Virus record (IMG/VR): IMGVR_UViG_3300042975_000096
DNA length: 64,000 nucleotides
Strand: one strand, 5' to 3'
Source: a virus
Lineage: Duplodnaviria > Caudoviricetes
In this document: positions 294 to 63,601 of the stretch, piece by piece
Layout: each line of letters opens with the position of its first letter
How positions within the stretch are numbered: the first letter of the stretch is position 1
Position numbers and translations under genes: made by a program
Notes under the pieces: generated by a model
What the model saw: only the letters and a program-made list of their open reading frames with translations
The model's database searches: none
What the model was told of the DNA's origin: nothing

Positions 294-433
294 TTTAATT
301 ACCTCTTTCGCTTAACTCTCTCTTAACTCTATACATATAATACCATAATATTATGTATTTGTCAATGAGTTTTTTAAATTATTTTATGATGGGAATTTAT
401 ACTCAAAATATTCTGAAACATTTTAAGGACAAT

Positions 434-471
434 AAAAAAGACTAAGGGAAAGACTCCCTTAGTCTTTTTTT
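434..471. terminator. Bidirectional intrinsic terminator (representative of ~60 in the window)
   Basis: AAAAAAGACTAAGGGA-AAGAC-TCCCTTAGTCTTTTTT. Confidence 0.85.
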
Positions 472-507
472 AACGTCTTATATTCTGCCAATATAGTTGA
501 CTTGATT

Positions 508-732
508 CTATCTGATAACCATATTAGGCGTTTCGTTTTCATTCACCGCGAAAGAACCTGTAAAAGTAACTGCGTGTTCGTCCTTATATAATTCGCTATA
601 TAAATCGTCCTCACAAAATTCATTTTTAATAATCTTATCGTTAATGGAGGTCGAGAGTTCTTTAATCTTACCATTTGCTAATGAAGCATACACATGTAGA
701 CGATTCACTTTATCGTTTACATGTTCATCCAC
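508..732 (-). pseudogene. Probable 5'-truncated gene fragment
   Basis: Protein-like frame, no RBS or promoter; abuts an opposite-strand fragment near 750. Confidence 0.4.
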
Positions 733-921
733 TTTTATTTCTTCAAATCGGTGATATGCTTTGAAGCAGATTCTAAAAAAGTTTGTGAAAAAATGAAAGG
801 CTATGGCAAACTTAAGATTGCTAATATGCTAGCTGAAAAAGTAGTCGATGAATTATTTCCAGACTCTCCAGAAAGAGATGAACTAATTGACACCGCAGTT
901 GATATGTACCTTAATAACTAA
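721..921 (+). pseudogene. Probable 5'-truncated plus-strand gene fragment
   Basis: Protein-like C-terminal part followed by terminator 931-967; no RBS. Confidence 0.4.
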
Positions 922-930
922 TGAATGAAT

Positions 931-967
931 AAAAAAAAGAGATATACTTAAATGTATATCTCTTTTT
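931..967. terminator. Bidirectional intrinsic terminator
   Basis: A8-GAGATATAC-TTAAAT-GTATATCTC-T5 between convergent ORFs. Confidence 0.8.
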
Positions 968-986
968 AACAAACAATTATTGTTAA

Positions 987-1316
987 TTATTTATTAAAAA
1001 TATCTTCCTCAATCTTATTCATAAGAGTACCATTGTCGTCTGTATATTCTGGAATTCCATTCTGGTCACAAAACTGTTTAATAGTCTTATATAAATTTGC
1101 TGACATACATGCTTTTATTGCTTCGTCAATCATCTGGGATAAGTCCATATTACTTGCTTCGGCTAGACTTGAGTTATTAATTCTAGTTGCTACTTTATCA
1201 GCGACAGTTTTCTTAATTTCATCATAATAAGTATCACAGAACATTTCGCTACATCCATTAATAATCTGGTCTTCGCTCATATCAGCGGCAATTCTTCTAA
1301 GTAATCTATTCGTCAT
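987..1316 (-). CDS. Hypothetical protein
   Basis: 109 aa, RBS AGGAG, no TTGACA promoter. Confidence 0.75.
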   Translation of the reverse strand: MTNRLLRRIAADMSEDQIINGCSEMFCDTYYDEIKKTVADKVATRINNSSLAEASNMDLSQMIDEAIKACMSANLYKTIKQFCDQNGIPEYTDDNGTLMNKIEEDIFNK

Positions 1317-1483
1317 TTTTTTTCTCCTATAACTTTAATTTATTCTTTTTAAAAACTATGTCCTATATTAGGTATCTATACATAATATAGAACAGTTATT
1401 CATTTTATATAACATATAAATAAATTATTTTTATTTTTAATAGTGTTTAATTTATATTACAAATATAAAAAATATTTAGTTGT

Positions 1484-1759
1484 TTATTTATTAAATGTAA
1501 TGTGTTCTAAAGGAGACATTCCGTACTGTTTACGCATTTCATTTATTTGTTTCCAAATATCTTTATCTTTTTTCTTGTCGTTTGCTAATGAAGATATAAG
1601 ATTACGATATTTCTTCGTTTTAATCATTTCTTTATATCGTTTTTGTGTTACATTAATCAAAGAATTGTATATTTTTCTTCCGATTTCAAATCGTTTGTCT
1701 AACATATCTTCTTGATATTTTTCAGTTTTTAAAAGAAATTGAACCACAAAATTTGCCAT
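1484..1759 (-). pseudogene. tnpB: Truncated TnpB (N-terminal ~82 aa only)
   Basis: MANFVVQFLLKTEKYQEDMLDKRFEIGRKIYN typical TnpB start directly after tnpA; no RuvC or Zn finger. Confidence 0.8.
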
Positions 1760-2316
1760 AAATATTCACCTCACTTTGCTATAATATTATTCACTTTTTA
1801 ATATCTCTTTTTCTGATTTTCAACATATTGTTTAATCGTTTCACTACAAACATTTCCAGCAGTTGAAACAAAATAACTTCTAGTCCATAGACTGGGCATC
1901 TTTGATAATTGCTTAAATTCTTCTCTAAGAATTTTGCTTGTATATCCTTTAATCTGTTGCATAATATTCGATGGACTTTGAGTAGGCAAACAATTTAAGA
2001 ACATATGAGAGTGGTCTTTATCACATTCTATTGCTATGATTTCAATTCCTAACTCCTGACATTTTAATTTGACCAGTTCTTTAAATCGTTGTTCTACTTT
2101 AGGTATCAGAAAAATTTTCCTTCTGTATCTTGGACAAAACACAAAATGATAATTTATCAAAGATACAGTTGTATTGGTATGTCTATAATTATTTTCCATA
2201 CTTATAGTATATCATATCGTGTGTATGTTGTCAATATGTTTATACATATATTCATCTAATTTTCTATGTATTGTGTGCTATCCATCCCACACCTAAAGGA
2301 GTGGGCTTTTCGCACT
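1514..2316 (-). mobile_element. IS200/IS605-family element, right part deleted
   Basis: End hairpin GCCCACTCCTTTAGGTGTGGGATGGATAGC (~2277-2310), intact tnpA, truncated tnpB. Confidence 0.85.
1798..2199 (-). CDS. tnpA: IS200/IS605 Y1 HUH transposase
   Basis: YHFVFCPRYRR, DHSHMF (HUH), LWTRSYFVSTAG, YVENQK motifs. Confidence 0.95.
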   Translation of the reverse strand: MENNYRHTNTTVSLINYHFVFCPRYRRKIFLIPKVEQRFKELVKLKCQELGIEIIAIECDKDHSHMFLNCLPTQSPSNIMQQIKGYTSKILREEFKQLSKMPSLWTRSYFVSTAGNVCSETIKQYVENQKKRY

Positions 2317-2354
2317 TAAATTGTAAACTTTAATTTAATATATTCTGAAAACAT

Positions 2355-2558
2355 TTAAGCTGTTATGAAAATGATTTTCAACGCACTTTGAATTATCATC
2401 CATGCTGAACCTGAAAACCCTGCAATAATCATAATCGCAAGCAACGGGTTTATGTCTTGTTTATCTTTGCATTTATGATATTTGTAACAACAATATATAA
2501 GCAAAAATACGCCACTAATTAAGACTGCGAATAATTCATTAATGTTATATTCGTCCAT
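2355..2558 (-). CDS. Small 2-TM membrane protein, paralog of 2582..2779
   Basis: Two hydrophobic segments; shared KDK..P.LAIMI motif. Confidence 0.75.
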   Translation of the reverse strand: MDEYNINELFAVLISGVFLLIYCCYKYHKCKDKQDINPLLAIMIIAGFSGSAWMIIQSALKIIFITA

Positions 2559-2581
2559 ATTTTGTTCCTTTCATTCGTGTG

Positions 2582-2779
2582 TTATATTTGGATAATATGT
2601 ACCACACAAGAAATCAATAAAATTGCCGAGCCAAACATCCCCACACATATCATAATTGCTAATTGTGGGTCTGTACCGTCTTTGTCTTTATATTTGATGA
2701 AGTTGCAAAAGCAATACAAAAACATTACCACGCCAATAGTAAGCATAATTAACCATTGATTCATTTCTGAAATATTCAT
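2582..2779 (-). CDS. Small 2-TM membrane protein, paralog of 2355..2558
   Basis: Two hydrophobic segments; shared KDK..P.LAIMI motif. Confidence 0.75.
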   Translation of the reverse strand: MNISEMNQWLIMLTIGVVMFLYCFCNFIKYKDKDGTDPQLAIMICVGMFGSAILLISCVVHIIQI

Positions 2780-2794
2780 ACTTTATACCTTTCA

Positions 2795-3067
2795 TTAATA
2801 CATTTTATACCAACATGATTCTATTCTGAATATCTTTTTTGATTTCATCATAGTTGTATAACTACAATGAATATATCCTTCTTTCAATACTTCTTTTGGT
2901 GGATTGTTAAATATATTCATTTCATTGACAATATACCATTCTAGTTTTGCAAGTGCATCCGCTTTCGTAGCAAACTGTTCAATAAATGGTTCATCATCCT
3001 CATAGACTTGATGGGTTGTGTAAATGTAATATTTCGTTGTTTGTGCTACATTGTTATTCCGTTGCAT
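2795..3067 (-). CDS. Hypothetical protein
   Basis: RBS AAGGTGAG, operon context. Confidence 0.7.
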   Translation of the reverse strand: MQRNNNVAQTTKYYIYTTHQVYEDDEPFIEQFATKADALAKLEWYIVNEMNIFNNPPKEVLKEGYIHCSYTTMMKSKKIFRIESCWYKMY

Positions 3068-3082
3068 AATGAACTCACCTTT

Positions 3083-3310
3083 TTATTTATCTTTATTGTC
3101 AAGAATAACTATTGCATTTTTAATTGCGTTTTTAATTAGCTCATTGAATGGACTATTTGATTCCTTTGAATCGGCATTTACATTAACTGTAATATTTACT
3201 GTTTTCTGTACAGATTGGTTTTCTGTTGGCTGATTGTTACCATACCGATTAATGTTATGTGACTTACAATATCTAATGTAGCTTGCGTTTGGCGGTTCAT
3301 TACGAATCAT
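3083..3310 (-). CDS. Hypothetical protein
   Basis: Promoter and RBS GAGGGAG upstream. Confidence 0.7.
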   Translation of the reverse strand: MIRNEPPNASYIRYCKSHNINRYGNNQPTENQSVQKTVNITVNVNADSKESNSPFNELIKNAIKNAIVILDNKDK

Positions 3311-3638
3311 TTTTATTCAACTCCCTCTATTTATCTTATGCTATTATTATATCATTGTTTTTTATTTTGTCAATGATTTCTTACTCATAATTCCGCACCA
3401 TAATAAACAATATGCTTTGCTGATGTTCTTTTTTCTAAAGTGCTCAAATGGATAAACGTTTGTGTATTCCTCACAACTATAGTACCATGTGTCCCAGAAC
3501 AACTCCATATCAATTTGTAATTTCGTTCGTTTGTTTAGAGATTTATATCGAATCATCTTATCACCATTTTTCAGAATATTATAAAATATTATTTATTCAA
3601 TGAAATTCGGCAATATTTAGTTATTGCCGAATTTTGAT

Positions 3639-3836
3639 TTAGTGCTCATTGTTACATTCACATTCATATTCACGTTCAGATTGATTACACGCTCTTGACG
3701 TTGGGTCTTTAACTGGGGCTACATTATATATGCAACGACCATTATCTTGATACAAGCAACCACCATATTCAGTACAAGCAAACGTATCTTTTCCAAATCT
3801 ATCTACATTCTTAAAATAAGATTCATTTAATATCAT
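3639..3836 (-). CDS. Cys-rich hypothetical protein
   Basis: Overlaps upstream gene; terminator follows. Confidence 0.65.
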   Translation of the reverse strand: MILNESYFKNVDRFGKDTFACTEYGGCLYQDNGRCIYNVAPVKDPTSRACNQSEREYECECNNEH

Positions 3837-4032
3837 ATTTTAGCACTTCCATTTCTCTTTCGTCACGGTCTGCAACATTAATTACAACGTCGTTATTATC
3901 AAATCCGTTTTCAATCAAAAACTCATGGATTGCATTTTCCAATCTGGATTCTCCCAAACTACTTCTCATGAAGTGACCGAGTTTCAAATACTGAATGTCA
4001 TTATCATTAAAAATATCAAGTTCGATTTTCAT
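3823..4032 (-). CDS. Hypothetical protein
   Basis: RBS GAAGGA. Confidence 0.7.
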   Translation of the reverse strand: MKIELDIFNDNDIQYLKLGHFMRSSLGESRLENAIHEFLIENGFDNNDVVINVADRDEREMEVLKYDIK

Positions 4033-4050
4033 TTTATTGTCCTTCTTTCA

Positions 4051-4377
4051 TTACAACAAATTATAAAACTGTGAATTAAACATTTTAGGATAACCGTTTC
4101 GTTCTCCTGCTCGATATGCTTCATTCTGCAAATAAAAAGCCATGTCCATTCCACAACCATGAACGATTACACAACCGTTCGTAGTTTTTGCCGTAGAGTG
4201 CTTCATGTGAACAAAATCAGCTACCATTTGAGAAATATCATTGCCATTAATAAAACAACGAAAATAACGGCTGTCATTACCATTGCCATATCTATCTTTT
4301 ACAATTCGTTCTAAGGAAAGTGTTAACCGTGTTTCTTTATCCAAAAGGTCATGCTCTTTCATCCAATCAATCAACAT
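4051..4377 (-). CDS. Hypothetical phage protein (GCGMDM motif)
   Basis: Standard promoter/leader/RBS unit; start refined to the ATG after GAGGT. Confidence 0.8.
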   Translation of the reverse strand: MLIDWMKEHDLLDKETRLTLSLERIVKDRYGNGNDSRYFRCFINGNDISQMVADFVHMKHSTAKTTNGCVIVHGCGMDMAFYLQNEAYRAGERNGYPKMFNSQFYNLL

Positions 4378-4457: not shown

Positions 4458-4700
4458 TTAGCTTCTTTTTAACTTCATGTATTCCTTCTTCAATTCGTTA
4501 AAATCGTCTTTATCGTCAACATCAATCATATATAATAAATCTTCACCACTATTAAATCCTGCGGTATTATAGCCAAGCTGTTCAAGTCCTTTAATAACAT
4601 TGTTTAGCTTTTTTACTTCTGATTCCTTCTTGATAGTAATAATTGCAACAGGTGTAGGATATTCATTTTTACCCTCATACGATATTTTCATTTCAACCAC
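4458..4700 (-). CDS. Hypothetical protein
   Basis: Standard unit. Confidence 0.75.
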   Translation of the reverse strand: MVEMKISYEGKNEYPTPVAIITIKKESEVKKLNNVIKGLEQLGYNTAGFNSGEDLLYMIDVDDKDDFNELKKEYMKLKRS

Positions 4701-4863
4701 TCCTTCTCTTAACTCTATAATTATAATATCATATAATTAAAAAAATGTCAAGTATTTTTTTGCACAATCATTCAATTTTAGAATAATCTGAAAACATATA
4801 AGACAATAAAAAAGCAAGTCTATTAAATAGACTTGCTTTCTAAAATCATCAACTCATAGCTTT

Positions 4864-5631
4864 TTAAATTACATCTTTCATATCCGAACAATGATGCTTT
4901 TTCAAAAAGGCTACAAGTTCTGCTGGTAATGAAAGGAAAAGTTTCTTTTTCCTTTCTTCCCAACTTTCGTCATTAGAATGTTGCGTGTAATTCAAATACG
5001 AAAAATCAGTTTCATAACCATCGCCGTATTTATTCTGTTTCAAAATTGGAATCATTTCATGCAAAAACTCTTTGCATTTTGCATGTTCGGTATCAACAGC
5101 AACATTGAGTCCTGAATATGCAAAAACACCAAAATAATCGCGCTGTTCCTCTTTGAATGATTCGAAATCAAAAAATACAGGCATGGTAATATCAAACGTG
5201 TTGAATCTTGTTTTTTCGTTGATTGTATCTGCCGACACCAACATACCTGTTTCTTCATGCCATGCAACCAGCTTACATTCATTGTGTGAAGTCTTATCCC
5301 ACTTATAATTTGGCGTATGAATAAAGTCAAACGTTGTCATTTTGAAGCCAAACTTCTTCAAAACTGCCATTGCTTCATTTAAATCAATTCCTGCATATAA
5401 ATCATATGCAAAAACCCGTTCAACGTCAGCAACTAAACAGTTTTTCTTGGGATTCATAGTGGCGTTTTTAATTCGATAAAATCCGCTATGAGTAACAGAA
5501 TTTGAAGATACCGCCGTTCCGTCAGGCAAATGTCCTAAGAAAATGGTATCACCTGTACGAAAACATGATTGCACAAAATCAATATAGCTTTCCTGAAATA
5601 AAACAATGTTGTCAGCATAATTCTTTGTCAT
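4864..5631 (-). CDS. Hypothetical protein, paralog of 7402..8148
   Basis: Shared GFY.I, AYDLY, AW.EETG.L.SADT, KTRFN motifs. Confidence 0.85.
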   Translation of the reverse strand: MTKNYADNIVLFQESYIDFVQSCFRTGDTIFLGHLPDGTAVSSNSVTHSGFYRIKNATMNPKKNCLVADVERVFAYDLYAGIDLNEAMAVLKKFGFKMTTFDFIHTPNYKWDKTSHNECKLVAWHEETGMLVSADTINEKTRFNTFDITMPVFFDFESFKEEQRDYFGVFAYSGLNVAVDTEHAKCKEFLHEMIPILKQNKYGDGYETDFSYLNYTQHSNDESWEERKKKLFLSLPAELVAFLKKHHCSDMKDVI

Positions 5632-5791
5632 GATAGGCTCTCCTTTAACTCTTAATTAACTCTGTATATATAATATCACAATTAAATAAAAATGTCAATA
5701 TATTTTTAAAAAGTATATTGATGAATCATTTTAGAATAATCTGAAAACTTTTAACGATGAAAATAAAAAAGGGGGAGTTGCCCCCATACAA

Positions 5792-6400
5792 TCAATCAAT
5801 CGTGCTAAGATAACCATTAGAATCGGCATAAACCAATTTTGTTCCTTTGTTAAAAAGTTTGTGCGCATTGTCGATTTCATACATAGAAACCACATGCCCT
5901 TTTAATTCAATCGTATAGCTGAATTTATTATTAAACTCTGAATATGTGACGGGAACAACAAACGCAAGTTTTTTCGTTCTATCCTCTACTCTATCCAATG
6001 CCATAATCTGTTCTTTTGTTCTTGCTTTTTTGCGTTCCACATTGATTTCAGAAAAAGTTTTCTTCTGACAATTCTTCAAACATTTCACAAGTTCGTCAGT
6101 TTTTCCGATATGATAAATATATTCTTCTTTTACGTCCAAAAGTGCCATTTTGTTATTGGAGTGTGGAGTACGAAAACCGATTTTTTTCAAATCAGCTTCC
6201 ATTGCCCTTTCTACTTCTTTCCTAACGTCTGCATTTGAAAAATGAAACATTGTTTCGCCACCCCATGAATCGGAAATAAATGAACCAACCTTTTTATTGT
6301 TCAGATAGATATTACCTTGCGGAATCATATATCCTTCATGGTCTGGGAAATATTTCAACGATTTAATGGAAACGTTGGACTGATATGTAATCTGATACAT
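5792..6400 (-). CDS. Hypothetical protein (DSWGG motif)
   Basis: Standard unit, long ORF. Confidence 0.8.
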   Translation of the reverse strand: MYQITYQSNVSIKSLKYFPDHEGYMIPQGNIYLNNKKVGSFISDSWGGETMFHFSNADVRKEVERAMEADLKKIGFRTPHSNNKMALLDVKEEYIYHIGKTDELVKCLKNCQKKTFSEINVERKKARTKEQIMALDRVEDRTKKLAFVVPVTYSEFNNKFSYTIELKGHVVSMYEIDNAHKLFNKGTKLVYADSNGYLSTID

Positions 6401-7401: not shown

Positions 7402-8148
7402 TTACGGTTCAAACCTATACTTATTTAAGAATGACTGCAACGAAACCGGAAAATCGTTGAAACTAACGGTTACGTCTGTATAACGTTGCGTATAATTTTT
7501 ATATGTAAAATCCGTTTTATAATTCTTCATATCGCCACTTGACTTTACAACTTTAATCATACATTTTAACCATTCGTCACATTGTGCATGAACGGCATCA
7601 AACTGAATGTTTGAATCACCATTAATAGAGGATAAACCCCAACAATCTACAAAACTTTCCTCAAATGAAGTTTGCATATCACAAAAAATAGGAGTAGTAA
7701 CGTCAATGTTATTGAAACGTGTTTTATTATCAAAAGTATCTGCTGAAATTAATATTCCGGTTTCATCATTCCACGCAAACACCTTTTTTTCTTGTGAAGT
7801 TTTCTTGTCGAATGTATGTCCAAAAAAGTCATACGTAACAAACTCAAAGTTAAATTTTTTCATTACTTCAAGGAACTCTTTCAAACCAATAGAATTATAT
7901 AAATCATACGCATATACATTGCTTAATTTTGCATATATATTTCTTTTGTTTTCATTTACATATAAAACCTTATCAATTTTATAAAATCCCTCTTTAGTAA
8001 TTTTGTTTTCGTCTTTAGCTGAATATACACGACTTCCATCTTGCGTATATCCAACATAACCAGAAAAATCAATTACTTTCCAATCCATTTTATCAGCAGG
8101 AATATAATATCCTTTCATATGTACAATTTCGCCAATATAATCATTCAT
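7402..8148 (-). CDS. Hypothetical protein, paralog of 4864..5631
   Basis: Shared motifs; start refined to MNDYIG after RBS. Confidence 0.85.
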   Translation of the reverse strand: MNDYIGEIVHMKGYYIPADKMDWKVIDFSGYVGYTQDGSRVYSAKDENKITKEGFYKIDKVLYVNENKRNIYAKLSNVYAYDLYNSIGLKEFLEVMKKFNFEFVTYDFFGHTFDKKTSQEKKVFAWNDETGILISADTFDNKTRFNNIDVTTPIFCDMQTSFEESFVDCWGLSSINGDSNIQFDAVHAQCDEWLKCMIKVVKSSGDMKNYKTDFTYKNYTQRYTDVTVSFNDFPVSLQSFLNKYRFEP

Positions 8149-10902: not shown

Positions 10903-10998
10903 ATTTCAATTCACGCACCCGTATGGGTGCGACTAATGCCTGAAATTAGATTGACTCTATATCAGGTATTTCAATTCACGCACCCGTATGGGTGCGAC
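10903..10998 (-). CRISPR. Type I-C mini-array 1: two 31-nt repeats, one 34-nt spacer, then a ~40-nt tail and terminator
   Basis: Repeats 10903-10933 and 10968-10998; spacer 10934-10967. Confidence 0.92.
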
Positions 10999-11198
10999 AG
11001 CACACATGCCAAAGCCTTGCTACGCAAGGGTTGAAATGGCACTTTGTGCGAACCCCTTAATATTTTACGAATTTCGTTGACACGCCCACATGAAAATGCG
11101 TATGAACCCTGTAAAACAAAGGGGTGCGAAGCACCTAGCGTTTTTCTGTTCACTTATGCTTCGCACTTATTATAACATTATGTTTGTTATTTTGTCAA
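10999..11198 (-). promoter_or_regulatory. CRISPR leader plus sigmaA promoter (copy 1 of 4)
   Basis: GTGCGAAGCA..TGCTTCGCAC and GGGGTTCGCAC motifs; -10 11169-11174, -35 11193-11198. Confidence 0.85.
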
Positions 11199-11457
11199 GT
11201 GCTTTTTTTACATTCATTTTCAGACAATTATGAAATACTATAATAAGAATGTATTTTTTTCAAAGATAATTTTTTCTACCTTCAATAACACTTTTTTGTG
11301 TTCCCATGTATATTTAATATGCTCTTTATTTTTAATCATATATACCTCCATTCCTTCTTGTAATTACCCACATTGGTTTTTATATCAATGTGGGTAAAAC
11401 TTATATATATTATATTATAAATGCCCTCACAATTGATTTACCGGCTTTTGACAGATA

Positions 11458-12922: not shown

Positions 12923-13128
12923 TTCAAAAACCCCTTTTCTTTGTTTAACTCTCTCTTAACTCTGTTTATATAATACCACACAATATTATAAATGTCAACA
13001 ACTTTTTAAACTTTTTTATTGGATTTTTTAATGCATATACCTTCCCATTGTTTTATAATATTCTGAAATATTTTACCTCTAAAAAAACAGGACTTGTATG
13101 TTGGCAACAAGTCCTGTTTCCTATCGTT

Positions 13129-15083: not shown

Positions 15084-15284
15084 TTATCGATACAACTCAT
15101 TCAGTTCGTCAATTTTCAAAAGGCTTACACGCAAAAGGTGATTGTAATTCTTTGCTTTTGCATTTTCATAATATTCATCAATTTCTTCTTCGGATTTTCC
15201 TTCTTTTTTCATGGCATTTGCAACGTAGCCCATAACACAAAATGCATTACCGTCAACCCCTACCAAACTGTACTTTTCGTCCAT
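15084..15284 (-). CDS. Hypothetical protein, paralog of 15845..16066
   Basis: KYSLVGVDGNAF.VMGYV.NAM..EGK.EEE. Confidence 0.8.
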   Translation of the reverse strand: MDEKYSLVGVDGNAFCVMGYVANAMKKEGKSEEEIDEYYENAKAKNYNHLLRVSLLKIDELNELYR

Positions 15285-16066: not shown

Positions 16067-16214
16067 AATATACTCCTTTTTGCTCTTTTTCTCTATGGTT
16101 ATATAATATCATAAATAATTTATTTTGTCAACATGTTTTTTAAATTTATATTTTAGAATATTCTGAAACATTATATAAAAAAGAAGTGATAAAACATACC
16201 ACTTCTCTCAACAA

Positions 16215-16735: not shown

Positions 16736-18235
16736 CTGCTTTCCAAAACATAGACAAACATGGACATGTAAAATTTATCCATATTTATATTAATGTCTAA
16801 ATTTTTTAATTACTTTCGTCACCATTTGTATTCTGATATCAATTATTTAATACCACATTGACAAACTCTTAAAGTTTAAGGCGTAAGCCACGCCCTTTAC
16901 TAATAAATGAATTAATTAATTAATTCATTTATTAGTTAGCTAAAGCTAATAGATTCATTACTGCGTTATAATCTCTATCTGCGGTGAACCCACACTTATA
17001 ACATATATATTCATTATGTTTTGTTTTATGTCTTTTATTGCCTGACAAAGTGATTTTATCTTCACCTGTTTTTACATGTCCACAACAAGAACATCTTTGA
17101 GTTGATGGGTAAAATCTATCAGCTATAATTAACTTTTTTCCATACCAATTACATTTATATGTAAGCAGTTGTCTAAATAAACCAAAACACGACCTTTGCA
17201 AGCCTTTTGATGCTACATGTGTCATTTGCATATGTTTCACATCTAAATCTTCTATTACTATTGTATCATATTTATCTGTTAGCATAGTTGTGAATTTATG
17301 TAAAATATCATGGGTTAAGTTGCTTGCTTTTTCATAATCACGTTGAAGTTTGGTTCTCACTTTTAAGTAATTATTACTCTTGCAAGCGTTTTTCCCTTTT
17401 ATTATATGCTTTTTCGCTAACATTTTTTGATAATGTTTGATACGATTATAATAAAAGTTTAATTTCTTGGGTAAAACATTCAAATTACCATCAGTGTAAT
17501 TAAAATGACCTACATTTACATCTATTGCTGTTTTTTTATTTGTTAAAACTTTTGTTTCAACACTGGTTTTATAAGGTAATGAAGCATAATATTTATTATT
17601 GACTTTAGTCACACTAACTACTGTTAAATCGGCATCAAAATTTTTTGGTAAACCTTTGATTTTAATATTTTGCCATTTTTCTTGAATTTCTCTAGGCTTA
17701 TCTAATTTTAATTTACCATTTTTAATTGTAATTCTATCTGATTTGAAACCTTGTTTTGTATCTTTTTTGGTTTTGAATTTAGGTTTTCCCCAATCAAGCT
17801 GAGATTTGCTTAAAAAATGATTCCAAGCATTTCCCAAATCTAAAATTGCTTGTTGTAAAATTCTTGAAGAATATTTATATTGCCAATCTTGTTTATTTTC
17901 AACAAGTTCATTTCTTACAACACGTTCGTTAGGTGCTTTGTAAGATTTATCGATACAATGTAAATCATACATTTGATTCCATGTTTCTAAACCTTGATTC
18001 CAACAATATCTGCGATAGTCGCAAAGATTATCTAAAACCTGTTTCATATGTTTGCTTGGATAAAGTTTTACTTTGATGGTCTTTATTGTTTTCAATTATT
18101 TATTTTCCCCCCTTTTTTAAGTATATTTGAGTACACTTGCTTCTATAAATTAAATTAAATTATTTGTGGATAAATGTGTTTATGAGTATATTTTTATATG
18201 TTTGAACACATTTGTCTATATTTTTAGTTACTTAA
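16736..18235 (-). mobile_element. Non-autonomous tnpB-only IS607-like element
   Basis: AG dinucleotide at both junctions, subterminal ATAGACAAA/TTTGTCTAT motifs, no transposase. Confidence 0.75.
16932..18095 (-). CDS. tnpB: TnpB RNA-guided endonuclease
   Basis: RuvC AIDVN, IEDL, DRDYNA and CSCCG/CYKCG Zn finger. Confidence 0.93.
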   Translation of the reverse strand: MKTIKTIKVKLYPSKHMKQVLDNLCDYRRYCWNQGLETWNQMYDLHCIDKSYKAPNERVVRNELVENKQDWQYKYSSRILQQAILDLGNAWNHFLSKSQLDWGKPKFKTKKDTKQGFKSDRITIKNGKLKLDKPREIQEKWQNIKIKGLPKNFDADLTVVSVTKVNNKYYASLPYKTSVETKVLTNKKTAIDVNVGHFNYTDGNLNVLPKKLNFYYNRIKHYQKMLAKKHIIKGKNACKSNNYLKVRTKLQRDYEKASNLTHDILHKFTTMLTDKYDTIVIEDLDVKHMQMTHVASKGLQRSCFGLFRQLLTYKCNWYGKKLIIADRFYPSTQRCSCCGHVKTGEDKITLSGNKRHKTKHNEYICYKCGFTADRDYNAVMNLLALAN

Positions 18236-19304: not shown

Positions 19305-19500
19305 TTTGAAAACCCCTTTTCTTTTTCTCTCTATGGTTATATAATACCACACTATTGCATAAATGTCAACATGTTTTTAAAATTTTTTAACCAACTATAT
19401 TTCAGAATATTTTGAAACACATAAACGAAAAAAAATAAAGGGAATATAAGCACTCCCTTTATTTGCAATAACGCATCATGTGGTACTTCGTACTATCAAT

Positions 19501-19532
19501 ATTTCAATTCACGCACCTCTGTGAGGTGCGAC
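19501..19532 (-). CRISPR. Mini-array 2: leader, single 32-nt repeat variant, ~38-nt spacer-like tail, terminator
   Basis: GTCGCACCTCACAGAGGTGCGTGAATTGAAAT with compensatory stem changes; terminator ~19429-19462. Confidence 0.88.
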
Positions 19533-19732
19533 AGCACACATGCCAAAGCCTTGCTATGCAAGGGCTGAAATGGCACTTTGTGCAAACCCCTTAATATTTT
19601 TCAAAATTCATTGACACATTATCGCCCAAATATGTATTAACCCTGTAAAACAAAGGGGTGCGAAGCACCTAGTGTTTTTCTGTTCACTTATGCTTCGCAC
19701 TTATTATAACATTTTACTTATTCATTTGTCAA
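19533..19732 (-). promoter_or_regulatory. CRISPR leader plus promoter (copy 2)
   Basis: Homologous to 10999-11198; -10 19703-19708, -35 19727-19732. Confidence 0.85.
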
Positions 19733-19883
19733 GTATTTTTTATTCAAACGAATTTTCGTTTGAAATTTTACTTATTTCTGCGCTTGCAATATGAAAATCA
19801 TCACAAGAAATATTCAAAGACAATGATTGATTGGAATCATACATATATGTAGAAGAAATCATATCCATTGTTGTCCTCCAATC

Positions 19884-23207: not shown

Positions 23208-23468
23208 TTAAAAATTACCAATGCATTTATAATATAAATTTTTATCTCCTAATGAAACCACCAGTTCATAATATTTATGATTAAACGCAATAAATTTAAT
23301 TTGTTCATAATTAATTTTAATATTTTTATCTTGTGATTTATATGCAATTAAAGTCATATAAGGATAATTCGCTTCTACTCGATTAAAAACATTACCTTCA
23401 TTATCAAATATTTTGTTTGGAATACCCTCACCATAATCAACAACATCTTGTACTTTCATAACATTCAC
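23208..23468 (-). CDS. Hypothetical protein
   Basis: ORF with GGGGTG RBS. Confidence 0.6.
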   Translation of the reverse strand: MNVMKVQDVVDYGEGIPNKIFDNEGNVFNRVEANYPYMTLIAYKSQDKNIKINYEQIKFIAFNHKYYELVVSLGDKNLYYKCIGNF

Positions 23469-23570
23469 CCCACTACATTATTGTATGCTAAATGCTGTTT
23501 TTGTTTTATATTATTCTGAAAACATTTAGGTGGATAAAAATAAGGTGGATATTTCTATCCACCTTATTCC

Positions 23571-40071: not shown

Positions 40072-40956
40072 TTACCCCTTCAATGTAGATTCCCATCCAA
40101 TTCTTATATTTGCTAAATCCTCTTTCTTCAAACTTTCTTCCCATGAAACCAATTTAGAGTCATCCGTTAAACTGGTTAAACAATCTTCTTCCATTCTAGA
40201 TACTAAATTGCCATCTTTTTCCTTGAAATGAGAAATAGTAATTCCGTCACCTATTCTATATGCAGGATTAATTATTACGCCCATACCTGTAATTGTAGTA
40301 ACATCATCATTTAACTTCGTGCTATCAATGGACTGTTTTAAATACTGTCCGTTTTTATCAAATGTATATGTTCCATCTGTATTTTTGGTTGCATTTGTTT
40401 CTGTTTCTTTAACAGGTAAAAGTACAACTTCTTCATTCGGTTTTACTTCTGTATCTGATATGATTATATTTGAACAAGCACCACCGTCATAATAATCCAA
40501 ACATACATTTGTACCATTAAAGTCTGCCCCTGCGTTAAAAGCACCTGTATAACGATAATGTTCTTTCCCATCTCTCCATACAACTATTTCTCCGTTTGTC
40601 GCATCGCTAACGAATTTAAAACACCAATGATGGTATTTATACCTCTCGTTTCCTATAGCCACTGTTTCTTTTCTTGATGGTTCGGTTATTTCATATATAA
40701 CTTCTGAATCATTAACACTAGCTTTGAAAATATCAGAAGTTTTAGTTGCTAATCTAATAGCTGCATGATAATATCCTTCTAGTTCTGCACCAAAAGATAC
40801 ATATAATGTTTTTGTTGTAGACGGTACTGTATAATATCCACTATTTGTAATAATATATTCGTTTATAGGATTACGTTTTATATCTTTTTGAATACCTCGT
40901 GTATTCATGTTAAAAGCATTTCCAGCTATACCTGGATTTATATATTTGAAACTCAT
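40072..40956 (-). CDS. Beta-rich, possibly ConA/LamG-like virion-associated protein
   Basis: HHWCFKF...GEIVVWRDG...SNIIISD; no sigmaA promoter upstream. Confidence 0.45.
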   Translation of the reverse strand: MSFKYINPGIAGNAFNMNTRGIQKDIKRNPINEYIITNSGYYTVPSTTKTLYVSFGAELEGYYHAAIRLATKTSDIFKASVNDSEVIYEITEPSRKETVAIGNERYKYHHWCFKFVSDATNGEIVVWRDGKEHYRYTGAFNAGADFNGTNVCLDYYDGGACSNIIISDTEVKPNEEVVLLPVKETETNATKNTDGTYTFDKNGQYLKQSIDSTKLNDDVTTITGMGVIINPAYRIGDGITISHFKEKDGNLVSRMEEDCLTSLTDDSKLVSWEESLKKEDLANIRIGWESTLKG

Positions 40957-41208
40957 TTCTATCACCTTTTTTTATTTATTTATAAACACACTAATAAAAT
41001 ATTAAAATGCGCATACTTCATTATCTTTATTGCACCATGATATATTAACTATATTTTAAAATATTCTGAAAATATTTTTCTTAATTATTATAATAACATA
41101 ACATATCTCATTTGTCAAGTAGTTTTTTATATAATATTTCAGAATATTTAGAAATAAAATCGTTGATAAAAAAAGAAGATGGATATTATATCCACCCTCT
41201 TACATATT

Positions 41209-49496: not shown

Positions 49497-49591
49497 TGTT
49501 GTACTCACGCACCCGTATGGGTGCGACTACAAAAAACACTTAAAGCACTTAGAAAAACAGATTTCAATTCACGCACCCGTATGGGTGCGAC
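49497..49591 (-). CRISPR. Mini-array 3: repeat 49561-49591, 33-nt spacer, 3'-degenerate terminal repeat 49497-49527
   Basis: Terminal copy ends GTGAGTACAACA instead of GTGAATTGAAAT. Confidence 0.9.
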
Positions 49592-49791
49592 AGCACACAT
49601 GCCAAAGCCTTGCTATGCAAGGGTTGAAATGGCACTTTGTGCGAACCCCTAATCATTTTACAAAATTCGTTGACATTTCCCCATGTAAACCTCAATGAAC
49701 CTTGTAAAACAAAGGGGTGCGAAGCACCTAGTGTTTTTCTGTTCACTTATGCTTCGCACTTATTATAGCATTTTACTTATTCATTTGTCAA
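49592..49791 (-). promoter_or_regulatory. CRISPR leader plus promoter (copy 3)
   Basis: Homologous leader; -10 49762-49767, -35 49786-49791. Confidence 0.85.
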
Positions 49792-49794
49792 GCA

Positions 49795-50037
49795 TTAATG
49801 TACCCACAATTCAACGCTTGCATCCCAATGATAACCAAAATCTGTTGCAAGCATTTCTAATAATGTTGTCGGTACGTCGTTATCAATGATTGGATTATAT
49901 AACGGGAAACCATTTTGATGCAGAAATAACTGCATACCAAAATCCGTTAGAAAATTTGTTCCTGTAAAATTTTTTACCCATTCTTCATATTCAGCCTGTT
50001 TTTTCTTCAATTCTGTTTTCAATGTTGACTGCTTCAT
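49795..50037 (-). CDS. Hypothetical protein
   Basis: Standard unit. Confidence 0.75.
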   Translation of the reverse strand: MKQSTLKTELKKKQAEYEEWVKNFTGTNFLTDFGMQLFLHQNGFPLYNPIIDNDVPTTLLEMLATDFGYHWDASVELWVH

Positions 50038-51159: not shown

Positions 51160-51361
51160 TATTGCACTCACGCACCCGTATGGGTGCGACAAAACGCAAA
51201 TTTCAATTCACGCACCCGTATAGGGTGCGACTCACTGTTTTGTTATTTTTCATTCTTACACTAATATTTCAATTCACGCACCCGTATAGGGTGCGACTTC
51301 CGTATCTGTCCATGGTCTCGCCCCACTGTATTTCAATTCACGCACCCGTATAGGGTGCGAC
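51160..51361 (-). CRISPR. Mini-array 4: three 32-nt repeats plus a degenerate terminal repeat; spacers of 32, 34 and 9 nt
   Basis: Repeats 51330-51361, 51266-51297, 51200-51231, 51160-51190. Confidence 0.93.
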
Positions 51362-51561
51362 AGCACACATGCCAAAGCCTTGCTACGCAAGGGATGAAAT
51401 GGCACTTTGTGCGAACCCCTTAATGTTTTACAAAATTCGTTTACATTTTATCGCCTAAATATAGAAGAACCCTGTAAAACAAAGGGGTGCGAAGCACCTA
51501 GTGTTTTTCTGTTCACTTATGCTTCGCACTTATTATAGCATTTTACTTATTCATTTGTCAA
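51362..51561 (-). promoter_or_regulatory. CRISPR leader plus promoter (copy 4)
   Basis: Homologous leader; -10 51532-51537, -35 51556-51561. Confidence 0.85.
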
Positions 51562-51570
51562 GTATTAATT

Positions 51571-54861: not shown

Positions 54862-55009
54862 TTTATTCCCCTCACTCTCTATCAATAACCTATTATTATA
54901 TTACTACATTTATTACTTTTTGTCAACCATTTTTTAATTTTATATTTCAGAATATTCTAAAATAATTATAAGGTATAAATAAATGGAGGGTATTTCTCCC
55001 TCCACATAT

Positions 55010-55588: not shown

Positions 55589-55790
55589 GATAATTACCTC
55601 TTTCCTTTTATTTAACTCATTTATCTCTTAACCATGTTTAAATAATACCATATATCATTGTAAATGTCAATAGGTTTTTTACATAATAAATAAAATTTTT
55701 TATAGTTTTATGATATGGAATTCTATTTCATAATAATCTGAAAACTTTTAGGCTAATAAAAATAGGGGCGCAATTGCGCCCCGTCCATTA

Positions 55791-57893: not shown

Positions 57894-58005
57894 TCCTATA
57901 CACTTTATCTTTACTATATATTATCACATATTTTAATAATTGTCAACAACAAAAAATAAAAAAGCAATAGACTTATTCTATTGCTTTTTCAGAATATTAT
58001 AAAAT

Positions 58006-58806: not shown

Positions 58807-59814
58807 TTACTTTTTCAAGTTACCTAAATATTCTTCGTACACATCACACACAAACGAATTAATTCTTTTTTCGTCAACCTGTTCTGGAAGTTTAGACGTT
58901 TCATACGCTTCTTGTAGTTCACGTTCCAACTTCTTCTGCAAACTAAACACCTTATCAAAATCATATTCGCCATTACGAATACTCATAAGTAAATCGTGTT
59001 CTTTATCTCTATATGTATGGATTTCCATGTTATTGAGAATATCCAATCCCATATAGTAAAGTCTAACCAAATGCATTGCGTGTTTGCGCAAATGTGGAAT
59101 ATCCTTTTTGTGATTGCGCTTATTCAGTTTTCCATAATTTCTAATCATGTTATTCATGGACGAATTAAGGTTTATAAAATCACGCAATGGAACATTAGAA
59201 AATTTACCGTCAATATAAATTTCTGTATCAAAATCATCTTTTTGCGATTCTTCAATATGAAATTTGATATTACTTTCAACGTCAAAATTCTTATACAAAT
59301 CTTTTGATACGCGCATTTCATTTTCAAGCGATTTCATAATATGCTTTTCCTTTTCCGTCTGCGGATAAAAATCTCTTGCCAAAGCATTTTCCAATCGTCT
59401 TAACTGCGCCGTTGCATATCCTGCAAAAGTATAAAATGCTTTTTTTGATAAAAACATATTACTGTTATCAATCATATATTTGCCAATATGATTGCAATAG
59501 ATAACGTCTTTAGTACCTAACAACTCAATTACATTAGGATTGCAACCTTTTAACAATGTAATTAGTTTTTTGAAACCATAAATACACGTATCTGTATCGG
59601 AATCATCAAACTGCTCAAAATGATTAAATGCTAAGATTTCTTCTTGCGTTTCCATACAACCGCCACGCAAATCAAAATCTGACCCCTCAATATTTGTACC
59701 ATAAGAATGTGAACCACCTGGAACCAACAGAAACAAATTGCTCAAATGCTTTTCAGTTCTCAAAAAATCATAGTCCTTTGATTCAAGTAGCTTTTTAACT
59801 TTTGTCATATCCAT
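58807..59814 (-). CDS. Pol-beta-fold nucleotidyltransferase, RlaP/YcgL-like
   Basis: GSHSYGTN...SDFDLRG, CNPN.IELL, F.GYA..QL, KHAMHLVRL. Confidence 0.85.
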   Translation of the reverse strand: MDMTKVKKLLESKDYDFLRTEKHLSNLFLLVPGGSHSYGTNIEGSDFDLRGGCMETQEEILAFNHFEQFDDSDTDTCIYGFKKLITLLKGCNPNVIELLGTKDVIYCNHIGKYMIDNSNMFLSKKAFYTFAGYATAQLRRLENALARDFYPQTEKEKHIMKSLENEMRVSKDLYKNFDVESNIKFHIEESQKDDFDTEIYIDGKFSNVPLRDFINLNSSMNNMIRNYGKLNKRNHKKDIPHLRKHAMHLVRLYYMGLDILNNMEIHTYRDKEHDLLMSIRNGEYDFDKVFSLQKKLERELQEAYETSKLPEQVDEKRINSFVCDVYEEYLGNLKK

Positions 59815-59998
59815 AGTATCTTACCTCATATTATATTTCAAATTCAATTCTTTCGTTGCTTTTTCTGTATAATCTTTTTTATTTGTTATATATAATACCA
59901 TAATATAGTTCATTTGTCAACTGATTTTTCATTTTTTTATTTTCAGAATATTATAAAACATAAATATTAAAAAGGTGCGGTTTTACCGCACCTACTTT

Positions 59999-60313
59999 TT
60001 AGCAATACATTTCTTTTTTAATATTCTTGATTCTTGTTCGCATTTGTTGCTGAACATCGTATTCAATAGCCATATCATTTTTGATTTCAGCTTTTGCCAT
60101 TTCAACATCGTTCTTTGCCGTATGACAATCAAGTAAACTACCTAAAGCCATAGCCACACAAAGTGCCTTATTTGCTTCATTTGCACTTCCTTGAATGTCA
60201 TGAAAAGCAGAAGCATAAATGTATCGAATATAATTTGCATTAATCAACGCCGTCATTTTATCATAATTTAAAGATTTTTCAACAACTCTAATCGCTTCAA
60301 CCGTACTATTCAT
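59999..60313 (-). CDS. Hypothetical protein
   Basis: RBS GAGGTG. Confidence 0.7.
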   Translation of the reverse strand: MNSTVEAIRVVEKSLNYDKMTALINANYIRYIYASAFHDIQGSANEANKALCVAMALGSLLDCHTAKNDVEMAKAEIKNDMAIEYDVQQQMRTRIKNIKKEMYC

Positions 60314-60322
60314 TTTTGCACC

Positions 60323-60568
60323 TCAAATCAATGTATCAAGATATTTATAAACGTCATTAACATGCGAACTCAGCCATTTTTCAAAGTTTTCTTCTCCACC
60401 GAGTTCATCCTCATTTGTTTCATCGATTTTCATATCTTCGGTAAACAAATCCCAAAGTTCACAACGTGTTTCCCAATAATCAAGTACATGATTTTTATAA
60501 ACGAATGTATCCTCGCCATTTTGTTTAACATAGGTCAATTCCTTCAATACATCAAACCAATTTTCCAT
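60323..60568 (-). CDS. Acidic protein, paralog of 41209..41466
   Basis: Shared motifs. Confidence 0.75.
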   Translation of the reverse strand: MENWFDVLKELTYVKQNGEDTFVYKNHVLDYWETRCELWDLFTEDMKIDETNEDELGGEENFEKWLSSHVNDVYKYLDTLI

Positions 60569-60718
60569 TACAATTACCTCTCTCTTTTTTAACTTTAGTT
60601 ATATTATAGCATTATATTATTCATTTGTCAATGATTTTTTATATATTTTATTTCATAATAATCTGAAAACTAAAATGAAACAATAAAAAAGGGGAAGCAA
60701 TAATCTTCCCCTTTTTTA

Positions 60719-61978
60719 TTAATCATCCTCTGACGTGTTCATTAAGTCTGTAATTCGATAATCTTTACCACAAATCTCACTCATTTTTATATACTGTGGC
60801 GTTGAACTTTGAAGTTTGAATTTAATTACATTGTATTCATAATTGTTCATTTTGCTAAACATATAAGATTGATATTGTTTTGGTATGGATTTTCTAATAA
60901 ACAATGCTTGTTCTTTTCTGCCAACATTTTTTGGAACTGATTCCCAATAGGAATTGATTGAATCATTCTCTTTTTTGATATAATCATATACAACATTTGC
61001 AATAGCATTGATACGGTCTTTATATGCCGTTGGCACTTTACTAATCAAATCGTCATAATATTCATCCGCGATTGCACGAATAATAACATTTGCTGACGAA
61101 TAAAAATTAAGCATTTTATGAATATCGACATAATCAGTACATTTCATTTTGTACATATATCCGTCAATGAAAAGTACCCATCCTTCTTTTTCTGTGCTTT
61201 TGTAATCGTCAACTGCTTTTTCAATCTGGTCAAACGTTCTCGTTTCAATCTCCGTCATGCTTACATGATATTTATCTGCAACCTGCTTTACTTCATTATA
61301 TGAAAACTGTTTGCCTGTATTATTGTCACGAATTCCAATCAAATACAATCCCTGTTGTTCTTTCGTATACTCAACAACATGTTTATCTTTTAATGAAATA
61401 TATTCAAAGATGAATGTTTTGCCAACATTTTCCATAATCATTGTTTTATGATTATCCGTTAAAAACAAATATCCTTCTTCTAGTCGAAACGACATAGCAG
61501 GATTCAATGATTGCGAACCACTCATAACAATTTTACCATTGTAATAACTTGCTGACTGCATTGAACCATCAAGTTTGTTTGCAATTTCCACGCATTTTGC
61601 ATGAGCAATTTTATCCAAAACAATATCGACATTAGTTTCTTCAATCTCGTTCACATTAAAGAACTTATGGAATGGACACAATACAATTTCATCCGTTTTC
61701 ATATCAATAACTAATGAGCGCATTTCACGATAAATAGAATTAACATTAGAATACAAATCAATATCTCCACCTTTAACAAGTGAATATTTGAAAAGGTTCA
61801 GTGTTCCATATACAGTGATATTGACACAATCCAAAAAGTTATTGTATTCTTTTGTATTCAACTTTTGACACATATCATCGATAGAATATGTATCAACTTT
61901 CCCAAACTGATTAACATAATCCTGTTTGATTTTCATGATATATTGATATGCATTATTCCACTCATAATTCATTTTCAT
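60719..61978 (-). CDS. T4 Rnl1-like RNA ligase
   Basis: PFHKFFN.NE, KLDGS (motif I), FEYI, EGWV, KMK. Confidence 0.88.
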   Translation of the reverse strand: MKMNYEWNNAYQYIMKIKQDYVNQFGKVDTYSIDDMCQKLNTKEYNNFLDCVNITVYGTLNLFKYSLVKGGDIDLYSNVNSIYREMRSLVIDMKTDEIVLCPFHKFFNVNEIEETNVDIVLDKIAHAKCVEIANKLDGSMQSASYYNGKIVMSGSQSLNPAMSFRLEEGYLFLTDNHKTMIMENVGKTFIFEYISLKDKHVVEYTKEQQGLYLIGIRDNNTGKQFSYNEVKQVADKYHVSMTEIETRTFDQIEKAVDDYKSTEKEGWVLFIDGYMYKMKCTDYVDIHKMLNFYSSANVIIRAIADEYYDDLISKVPTAYKDRINAIANVVYDYIKKENDSINSYWESVPKNVGRKEQALFIRKSIPKQYQSYMFSKMNNYEYNVIKFKLQSSTPQYIKMSEICGKDYRITDLMNTSEDD

Positions 61979-62562
61979 TCATCCTCTTTATGCATTTTCC
62001 TTTTTTCAATTAATTTTCGTTCTTTTGCTAACATGATTTCACGAATAACCAACAACGCAGTAAACACAACAACTAATGCAATTAAAGCAAATACAATGAT
62101 ATTTCTATGGGTACACATTTTGTTCCACGGTTCTTCATTAGGAACAATATTTACAATTTCAAGCCCATAATAGTCGCTATCATATGTATCAATTATTTTT
62201 ACTTCTACAATAACAGGTAATTTTGAATCACCAATCTGTCTAAACAGCTTATCTTGTTTTTGTGTTGGATAAATATATACATAATCGTCTTCGTCATTAA
62301 ATACTAACTTATATTTATATCCCGAATCATTCTGCCCATTCATAACATAACCGATTTTATTATAATTCCTATCGAAACCATTGGTAATATTATCAATTTC
62401 AACATCATTATTATATGACGAATATTGAAAGTTTTTTGGTGGCAATGTAAAATTAGGTCTATTTATCATGCTTGTAAACATCGCAATAAACATGATTAAT
62501 GATATGAAACACGCAAACATTACAAGGGCTATCGCCCATAACCATTCCATAATTTTTTTCAT
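61975..62562 (-). CDS. Membrane protein (2 TM)
   Basis: N- and C-terminal hydrophobic segments. Confidence 0.75.
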   Translation of the reverse strand: MKKIMEWLWAIALVMFACFISLIMFIAMFTSMINRPNFTLPPKNFQYSSYNNDVEIDNITNGFDRNYNKIGYVMNGQNDSGYKYKLVFNDEDDYVYIYPTQKQDKLFRQIGDSKLPVIVEVKIIDTYDSDYYGLEIVNIVPNEEPWNKMCTHRNIIVFALIALVVVFTALLVIREIMLAKERKLIEKRKMHKEDE

Positions 62563-62720
62563 TTTTCTATCTCCCTATATTATTTATATTCATATCATAT
62601 CACATTTTATTATTTTTGTCAAATTCATTTTAACGTTTTTATCAAATTCATTTTAACGTTTTCAGAATATTATAAAACAACATAGTGATGAAAATATGAA
62701 GGGGAATTATCCCCTTCATA

Positions 62721-62912
62721 TTATAGTCCTAATGCCTTACAAACGGCATCTCCCCAATCAATAGACCCTGCAATAACAATCCCAGAAGCAATAGCACAAT
62801 TTTTAATTTCTTCTTTGATTCGTGCATTTCGATTACGTTTTGCAATCATTTTTTTCCATGCAATCGTATGTGAACCAACAAAATCAATTTTCATTTTTTC
62901 CGCACTAGTCAT
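62721..62912 (-). CDS. Hypothetical protein
   Basis: RBS AAGGGGG. Confidence 0.7.
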   Translation of the reverse strand: MTSAEKMKIDFVGSHTIAWKKMIAKRNRNARIKEEIKNCAIASGIVIAGSIDWGDAVCKALGL

Positions 62913-62925
62913 TTTTCGTTCCCCC

Positions 62926-63129
62926 TTATTTGGTTTCTTCCATATATTTCAGATTAACATTGGGCATCCATGCAATGACGGAATCAAAACGTTTTGTATC
63001 CATATTGAAGAATTCTCCCATATACGTTCCCTGGTGAACAACCCCTTTACAATCCCAAAAGATAACCTCCTGTGTCATATCCGGTTCCTTCTCGTTCAGC
63101 ATGTATACAACGTTCGTATAATTTTTCAT
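62926..63129 (-). CDS. Hypothetical protein (DUF551-like V.AWMP end)
   Basis: Standard unit. Confidence 0.65.
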   Translation of the reverse strand: MKNYTNVVYMLNEKEPDMTQEVIFWDCKGVVHQGTYMGEFFNMDTKRFDSVIAWMPNVNLKYMEETK

Positions 63130-63204
63130 TTTGAAAATCCCCTTTCATTTGGTCTGTTTCCTTATCTCTATTATTATAATATCATATCTTAATGTTTTTG
63201 TCAA

Positions 63205-63444
63205 CTACTTTTTACAAATATTATCAATTTTAATGTTAGCACTGTCAACAAATTCAAAAAGCTTATCCAATTTGCTTATCATTTCGTCCTCATTGTTTGA
63301 TTCAATTAGCGTATCAATTTCTCTCGATATACGCTTATTTAGTGCATCAAATTCGCACTTGATAATTTCTGCCCTTGCATTTGGTTTAGAATCAAAATAG
63401 GTTTTAATTCTAACAACCCAATCATCATATCGTTCACTTTTCAT
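63205..63444 (-). CDS. Hypothetical protein
   Basis: Standard unit. Confidence 0.7.
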   Translation of the reverse strand: MKSERYDDWVVRIKTYFDSKPNARAEIIKCEFDALNKRISREIDTLIESNNEDEMISKLDKLFEFVDSANIKIDNICKK

Positions 63445-63601
63445 TTCAATTCCCTCTTTCGTTCAACTCTTTTTTAACTCTGTTTATATAATATCACAAA
63501 TCAATATAAATGTCAATAGTTTTTTAAAAAATTATATTTCAAAATTATCTGAAAACAATTTGATAATAAAAAAGAAGGTCTAACATAGACCTTCTAATGA
63601 T

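Follow-up and report, generated by a model that had tools for sequence, protein, structure and literature searches.

In T4-type phages, promoter-early stem-loop cassettes serve as repeated regulatory junctions, each consisting of a promoter and a hairpin, which flank small early genes and mark variable gene content. Repeated sites of another kind occur in the Cluster A mycobacteriophages, whose repressors (L5 gp71-type) halt elongation at stoperators (PMC9283540), the consensus of which differs between related phages (PMC9283540; PMC6550527), and the genomes of phi29 and Nf contain Spo0A boxes, few in number, that overlap promoters and origins (PMC2731898). As for the global regulator CodY, its 24-nt overlapping site, AATTTTCWGAAWWTTCWGAAAATT, in which two 15-nt boxes share 6 nt, is carried by the DNA of a crystal (PMC10415144, crediting Wray and Fisher 2011). 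In the present study, we analysed a 64,000-nt stretch of a Caudoviricetes genome (IMG/VR record IMGVR_UViG_3300042975_000096; the whole stretch is hereafter called the window), in which an 18-bp pseudo-dyad with the consensus TTTCAGAATATTCTGAAA recurs as a long array between early genes, and compared this array with the systems above.

Many copies in short intergenic spaces, a proposed block to elongating RNA polymerase and a site consensus that varies among related phages are features that the array shares with stoperators. However, stoperators are asymmetric 13-bp sequences, bound by a monomer, functional in one orientation only and serving temperate immunity, whereas the phage site is an 18-bp pseudo-dyad that is used in both orientations (31 versus 24). 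It is linked to intrinsic terminators and belongs to the early region of a jumbo phage for which the window gives no sign of lysogeny. With the Spo0A boxes of lytic Bacillus phages it would have in common that a phage carries sites for a host global regulator and ties early transcription to host physiology, but those boxes form no terminator-locked array. In contrast to the T4-type cassettes, the conserved unit here is a protein-type dyad, without selection for a hairpin. CodY operators resemble the phage sites in the 18-bp core consensus, the 9-bp register, the invariant T and A positions, the dispensable C:G pairs and the combination of two unequal boxes; the phage sites differ from them in their unconserved outer arms and strict one-core rule, in their number (~60 over 64 kb), in the constant interval that separates each from the terminator before it, and in the replacement of the motif in relatives.

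The element fills the untranscribed gap that extends from the terminator of one early unit to the promoter of the next. Our leading, though still tentative, explanation is that selection maintains it as an operator in double-stranded DNA, at which a symmetric protein (one dimer, or two that overlap) would bind and insulate the early units from one another.

Recurrence and conservation of the 18-bp element

All positions refer to the whole window and, as all genes lie on its minus strand, upstream and downstream are used with respect to the gene strand. A scan with TTTCAGAATATTCTGAAA gave 55 matches at up to three mismatches, against 0.18 expected (100 shuffles, the largest count being 2), and 62 matches at up to four, from which 61 credible sites were retained; the match at 15164 was dropped as a chance match within a gene. 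The original prediction, which was made from the letters of the window alone, had spoken of about 55-60 such palindromes, a figure borne out by these counts, and the letters of its two examples, at 16151 and 54945, read as they had been quoted. Fifty-nine of the 62 matches are intergenic, that is, they fall into the 25% of the window that minus-strand open reading frames (ORFs) leave uncovered (binomial p = 1e-31), and the median spacing from site to site is 917 bp. The array extends past both ends of the window, and L195 holds four further copies upstream of the window end, the preceding 6 kb of larger genes being free of them.

Positions 1-18 carry a high information content, which drops almost to zero just outside, and such sharp edges, together with the unconserved flanks, point to selection on the 18 bp itself. 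Positions T2, T3, A7, T9, T12, A16 and A17 are essentially invariant (T3 and A7 in 61/61 sites, T12 and A16 in 60/61), and the weakest positions are the four occupied by G or C, namely C4 (48/61), G6 (34/61), C13 (31/61) and G15 (42/61). Not one of the window sites is a perfect copy of the consensus. No Rfam family was found at the sites, and for GAATATTC, which was considered as an avoided restriction site, the expected count is only 2.4.

Placement relative to terminators and promoters

With strong promoters defined as TTGACA-17-TGnTATNAT, there are 82 in the window. On the gene strand, a terminator stem with its T-run usually comes first; it is followed by the site and by a variable spacer, rich in A/T and closing with an A-tract, after which come TTGACA-17-TGnTATTAT, the leader and the gene. 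An upstream site is present at 55 of the 82 strong promoters and absent at 27, so that roughly one site per transcription unit, as had been stated earlier, does not describe the array; 22 of these 27 promoters are also without an upstream terminator. Seen from the terminators, 47 of the 65 predicted ones are followed by a site, and the gap between stem end and site is narrowly set, with a median of 19 nt and an interquartile range of 18-20 (42/47 within 16-22 nt), the site starting ~10-12 nt beyond the U-tract. The gap between the site and the -35 hexamer spans 14-98 nt. Moreover, the spacing of the 18-bp frame from the terminator is the same whichever half of the site holds the CAG/CTG core. 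Given the tight gap between stem and site, and given that promoters without an upstream terminator are mostly without a site as well, the site tracks terminators, not promoters.

This placement bears directly on the idea that the site is a class I-type upstream activator or a DNA-bending site for the adjacent promoter, its closeness to the terminator being incidental. The spacings between site and -35 do cluster at 19-21, 28-32, 40-41 and 51-55 nt, near whole helical turns, and at the start of the array, where there is no terminator, two sites nevertheless lie ahead of the first promoter, the distance to its -35 being 19 nt for one of them. Against this, the spacings of a second set (24-25 and 35-37) are out of phase by half a turn, and the Rayleigh signal comes mainly from a single mode and from paralogous spacers. 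The 27 promoters that have no site are equally strong, and the positioning to the terminator is far tighter than that to the promoter. An activator or bending site thus seems improbable to us.

Individual sites depart from the usual order (Table 1). Modules of a terminator plus a site without any promoter within 160 nt are found at 3569, 23504 and 45098, and at the first two of them the next gene stands directly behind the site; transcription of the gene at 23208-23459 would need read-through past the site at 23504.

As a separate observation on these promoters, a second motif, RGTTAA, starts exactly 8 nt past the -10 hexamer in the leaders of 33 of the 82 strong promoters (e.g., 300-336 and 12930-12969). 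Two copies in a row, as AGAGTTAAG-N3-5-AGTTAA, frequently stand at the transcript start, and the motif occurs with or without the palindrome.

Internal organization of the site

Among the 61 sites, the core CAG is present on the left in 32 and the core CTG on the right in 25, both cores in 1 and neither in 5. If the two halves were independent, 13 sites with both cores would be expected against the 1 observed (Fisher p = 8e-11), and the same one-core rule holds in 9/9 sites of L201, one of the relatives considered below. The core faces the terminator in 31 sites and the promoter in 24. In the weak half, two forms recur, namely TTTTATAAT and TTTCTAAAT, each of which is found in both orientations. 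From this we infer a symmetric binder that needs a fixed binding energy, for which one core is just enough; surplus G/C beyond one core would decay in a genome of such low G+C content (~30% in the window).

The internal variation also decides on whether the palindrome works as a hairpin, in RNA or in DNA. The consensus could indeed fold as RNA at -7.2 kcal/mol, but dyad-breaking (one-sided) changes outnumber compensatory ones by 136 to 2 and the median predicted RNA folding energy of the real copies is 0, and therefore the site is not selected as a hairpin. With the sites lying downstream of the terminators in addition, we regard a hairpin function as negligibly probable.

Comparison with CodY operators

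The original prediction had seen in the consensus core an overlapping CodY double box, and this likeness is confirmed, since the phage consensus agrees with the 24-nt CodY site at 18/18 core positions (core TTTCWGAAWWTTCWGAAA, with two 15-nt boxes 9 bp apart and the two TTCWGAA cores offset accordingly). The only base-specific contacts given for CodY are those of Ser215 to T6 or G18' and of Met237 to T24' or T15; T15/T15' are almost invariant in the logos, and many real sites lack the C7:G18' pair (PMC10415144). Phage T3, A7, T12 and A16 map onto CodY T6, T15', T15 and T6', the positions contacted by Ser215 and Met237, and the C:G pairs are dispensable in the array as they are in real sites. 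By our own calculation, a random dyad of the same composition would show such a core match with a chance of ~6e-5 per register.

The claim of a full strong CodY operator survives in part: it stands for the 18-bp core and the contacted positions, but not for the outer AAT/ATT arms (positions 1-3 and 22-24), which are unconserved, A/T-rich (~0.1-0.4 bits) and show a weak preference for ATA/TAT. Whole 24-mers differ from the CodY site by 5-9 mismatches, the better 15-mer by 2-4 and the other by 4-7. For natural operators, box mismatches of 2 and 4 (hutP) and of 5, 2 and 3 (ureA) are quoted (PMC10415144), and the phage 15-mers lie within that range, without being better.

Binding by host CodY, as was originally proposed, taken here as that of two cooperating dimers on each site, would explain these agreements, from the core identity and the contacted positions to the operator-like mismatch counts; the confinement of the sites to untranscribed gaps fits a decoy, and an HPr/Crh-like protein encoded by the phage would be in keeping with it. 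On the other hand, the arms are unconserved, both cores are united in only 1/61 sites, whereas a sponge should favour maximal affinity, and the relatives described below carry other motifs in the same places. No such site is present in phage G or Bacillus phage KLEB27-3. On balance, binding by host CodY is in our view a serious possibility, if one that we would not expect to prevail. Its more elaborate form, in which host CodY would be recruited to ~100 terminator-locked sites (61 in the window and more past both ends) and the replicating genome would act as a CodY sponge derepressing host biosynthesis, we consider rather unlikely. It had further been suggested that the phage couples its early programme to nutrients in this way; since the place of the sites, which lie upstream of the promoters, is set by the terminators, promoter repression is not the obvious mechanism for such a coupling. 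CodY roadblock repression is named in a title of the reference list of PMC10415144, and our literature search found no description of a phage CodY regulon.

Fate of the motif in related phages

Relatives were taken to be syntenic contigs reached via RNA-ligase homologues. L201 (RNA-ligase identity 69%) has 9 copies in 10.7 kb and L203 (85%) has 3 copies, with the same motif and layout and with diverged flanks. In L204 and L205 (52% identity, 39% G+C), ~10 copies of TCAGTGTA-TTGCGGAAT-n-TTCTGAAAA stand behind terminators in both orientations, one half of the site being kept and the other replaced in concert and extended. L209 and L210 (49% identity, 30% G+C) have their early genes in common with the window, the HPr-like and DUF6927 genes among them, and in the same gaps they carry an unrelated dyad, ATAAAACATTTTACA, at 23-25 copies per 21 kb, often as inverted pairs with ~17-21 bp between the copies and situated between terminators and promoters; the first motif is found there in 1 chance-level copy each. 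The gap upstream of the DUF6927 gene displays the whole succession, with the motif in the window, the same motif flipped in L201 (the core lying in the opposite half), the TTGCGG variant in L204 and the unrelated dyad in L209 and L210. The layout is thus kept across lineages and is independent of orientation, with the sites confined to untranscribed gaps.

Outside these contigs, phage G and KLEB27-3 gave 0 matches at up to three mismatches, and neither a promoter array nor a repeat of this sort is present in a 49-kb stretch of phage G. L206-L208 are without the motif, the parts seen there not being early arrays. An exact-pattern scan of viral contigs returned, among the matches listed, single chance ones only, and relatives sought via the CCA-adding enzyme and a radical-SAM gene brought nothing useful.

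Both the concerted half-site change, in which all copies of L204 have TCAGTGTA-TTGCGGAAT for one half, and the new dyad of L209 and L210 speak for a phage-encoded binder and not for a universally conserved CodY specificity. By analogy with the Cluster A stoperators, the lineage-specific motifs would represent the pattern of co-evolving protein-operator pairs, and the swaps are also compatible with different host factors in each lineage.

One may further ask whether the repeats are cassette boundaries for recombination, comparable to T4-type promoter-stem-loop cassettes or to integron attC, with no regulatory binder at all. Contigs of other samples do have their ends or joints at or beside sites and promoters (e.g., 59943, 59952, 60654, 62658 and 63540), and between conserved junctions the window and L201 do not hold the same genes. 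Yet the sides of these joints are short, and assembly at repeats may account for them; for homologous exchange a stretch of 18 bp is short, and the position-specific, symmetric conservation with free flanks indicates readout by a protein. Hairpin covariation is absent, and apart from the IS200/IS605 element no recombinase was found in the window. We therefore hold a purely recombinational role to be very improbable.

A possible insulator and its binder

RNA polymerase halts ~14 bp before a protein roadblock, as is known from E. coli. A protein seated on a site that starts 19 nt past the stem would accordingly hold a read-through polymerase in or near the U-tract, whereupon release of the RNA would be favoured and termination reinforced, and the bound protein would at the same time shield the next promoter, as an insulator or roadblock. 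The few promoterless genes behind a terminator and a site might then be switched by the occupancy of that site.

Several points weigh against such an insulating operator. About 14 sites have no terminator by the detector used, some of these terminators being merely imperfect, and in lineage 3 (L209/L210) the terminator distance is looser. The geometry of the roadblock uses distances taken over from E. coli work. A Pfam search of the 115 window ORFs and of selected ORFs revealed no known DNA-binding family. Finally, the core match would be a coincidence if the binder were unrelated to CodY, one that we estimate ourselves, with the large number of known motifs open to such a match taken into account, at roughly 1 in 100.

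As to the identity of the binder, the match to the CodY core argues strongly for CodY, and the replacement of the motif in other lineages argues strongly against it. A phage-encoded binder, which may include a phage protein with CodY-like specificity, comes in our judgement close to an even chance, and we find it slightly more likely that the binder is encoded by the phage and co-evolves with its sites than that it is host CodY. Such a binder had been named in the original prediction as the alternative; it predicts the lineage swaps of the motif, but no DNA-binding family that would supply it was found among the 115 ORFs. The gene behind the doubly flanked promoter 41118 (40072-40965) was considered as a candidate for the binder and rejected, as its product has a ConA/LamG-like (lectin-like) fold.

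Genome context and neighbouring features

The end of a 430,772-bp metagenome contig of the Joint Genome Institute (JGI 3300051660 Ga0527070_013) matches the window at 99.98%, contigs of other samples match it at up to 100%, and the same DNA is present in wastewater and bioreactor-sludge runs from 15 studies. The phage carrying the array is a giant (jumbo), uncultured wastewater phage. No close cultured phage was found, the top protein matches being those to KLEB27-3 (~40%) and phage G (28%). At 59943-59961, 60654, 62658 and 63540, all at or next to palindromes and promoters, other wastewater contigs part from the window or skip to another place in it; these breaks could be strain mosaics breaking at repeats, or an assembly effect.

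The gene content of the window includes an RNA ligase 1, an RlaP nucleotidyltransferase, a CCA-adding enzyme, a DHH phosphoesterase and an IS200/IS605 element. In the Pfam scan of the 115 ORFs, one matched PTS-HPr (5e-9), and an HPr-family gene was called in the lineage-3 relatives as well (L209 15394-15642, L210 15693-15941); this gene suggests interference with host carbon-catabolite signalling. In the relative L201 a TnpB gene stands in another place (L201 2141-3253). The TnpB of the window is only ~62% identical to Lactobacillaceae copies, and no host could be assigned from it. On L195, a 1.4-kb gene-free, A/T-rich stretch (4560-5960) with a C-rich tract at ~5420-5475 lies before the first early promoter, and a G+C-richer non-coding stretch with many short inverted repeats (7650-7990) follows the third gene.

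A module of ~240 bp is repeated at 84-92% identity at 10903-11200, 19500-19737, 49561-49799 and ~51330-51569, each copy with its own TTGACA-18-TATAAT promoter. At 10935-11000 the module runs into two type I-C repeats of the CRISPR (clustered regularly interspaced short palindromic repeats) kind and one spacer, and the window contains no cas genes. The CRISPR repeat of the phage is absent from 401 sampled Bacilli genomes and has no exact copy in the metagenome contigs searched; the contigs that hold the nearest arrays, with 2 mismatches to it, have a G+C content of 47-59%. Four single type I-C-like repeats are scattered over 6 kb of L219 (contig PDYJ01002307.1, 460,937 bp), which may be another jumbo phage with dispersed mini-arrays.

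Table 1. Positions of the array, of selected sites and of other features in the window.
Feature	Position	Strand	Remarks
Array of 61 copies of the 18-bp pseudo-dyad	401..63554	unstranded	Mismatch scan
Typical site	16151..16168		1 mismatch; order terminator, site, A-tract, promoter
Intrinsic terminator (stem + T-run)	16176..16206 (approximate)	minus	Just upstream of site 16151; read from sequence; terminator scan
Sigma-A-type promoter, TTGACA-17-TGnTATTAT	16103..16131	minus	19 nt downstream of site 16151
Site	54945..54962		CTG core toward promoter; 18 nt from -35
Site	41137..41154		Upstream of promoter 41118; partner site downstream of the same promoter
Site	41054..41071		In transcribed leader, ~18 nt past -10 of promoter 41118; only clear case downstream of a promoter
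Site	23504..23521		Terminator + site, then promoterless gene 23208-23459
Site	3569..3586		Directly before ribosome-binding site of gene 3362-3556; no promoter between
Site	55726..55743		In gap upstream of DUF6927 gene
Site	57987..58004		Exceptional order site, terminator, promoter; same order at site 48851
Sole perfectly self-complementary copy, TTTCAAACTAGTTTGAAA	57095..57112		4 symmetric changes versus consensus
IS200/IS605 element	16819-18095		TnpB 16932-18095; Rfam Transposase-1 RNA 16819-16874; Y1 transposase among scanned ORFs

Significance

Large lytic phages run, and then shut off, dozens of head-to-tail strong promoters of the host type, and how neighbouring units are insulated from one another is poorly known. 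The array presents a concrete design for this, in which each terminator is followed, after a constant interval, by one protein site, and the design is conserved across related uncultured jumbo phages even as the sequence of the site is swapped between lineages. The locking to terminators, the one-core rule, the lack of hairpin covariation and the lineage-specific replacement of the motif are new here. If CodY is truly the binder, no larger case would be known of a virus wired to a nutrient sensor of its host, and recruitment of host CodY would mean that a phage carries a regulon for a global regulator of its host at a scale for which there is no earlier description. If the binder is instead encoded by the phage, the array would represent a new form of elongation-blocking operator outside the temperate mycobacteriophages, together with a set of orthogonal protein-operator pairs.

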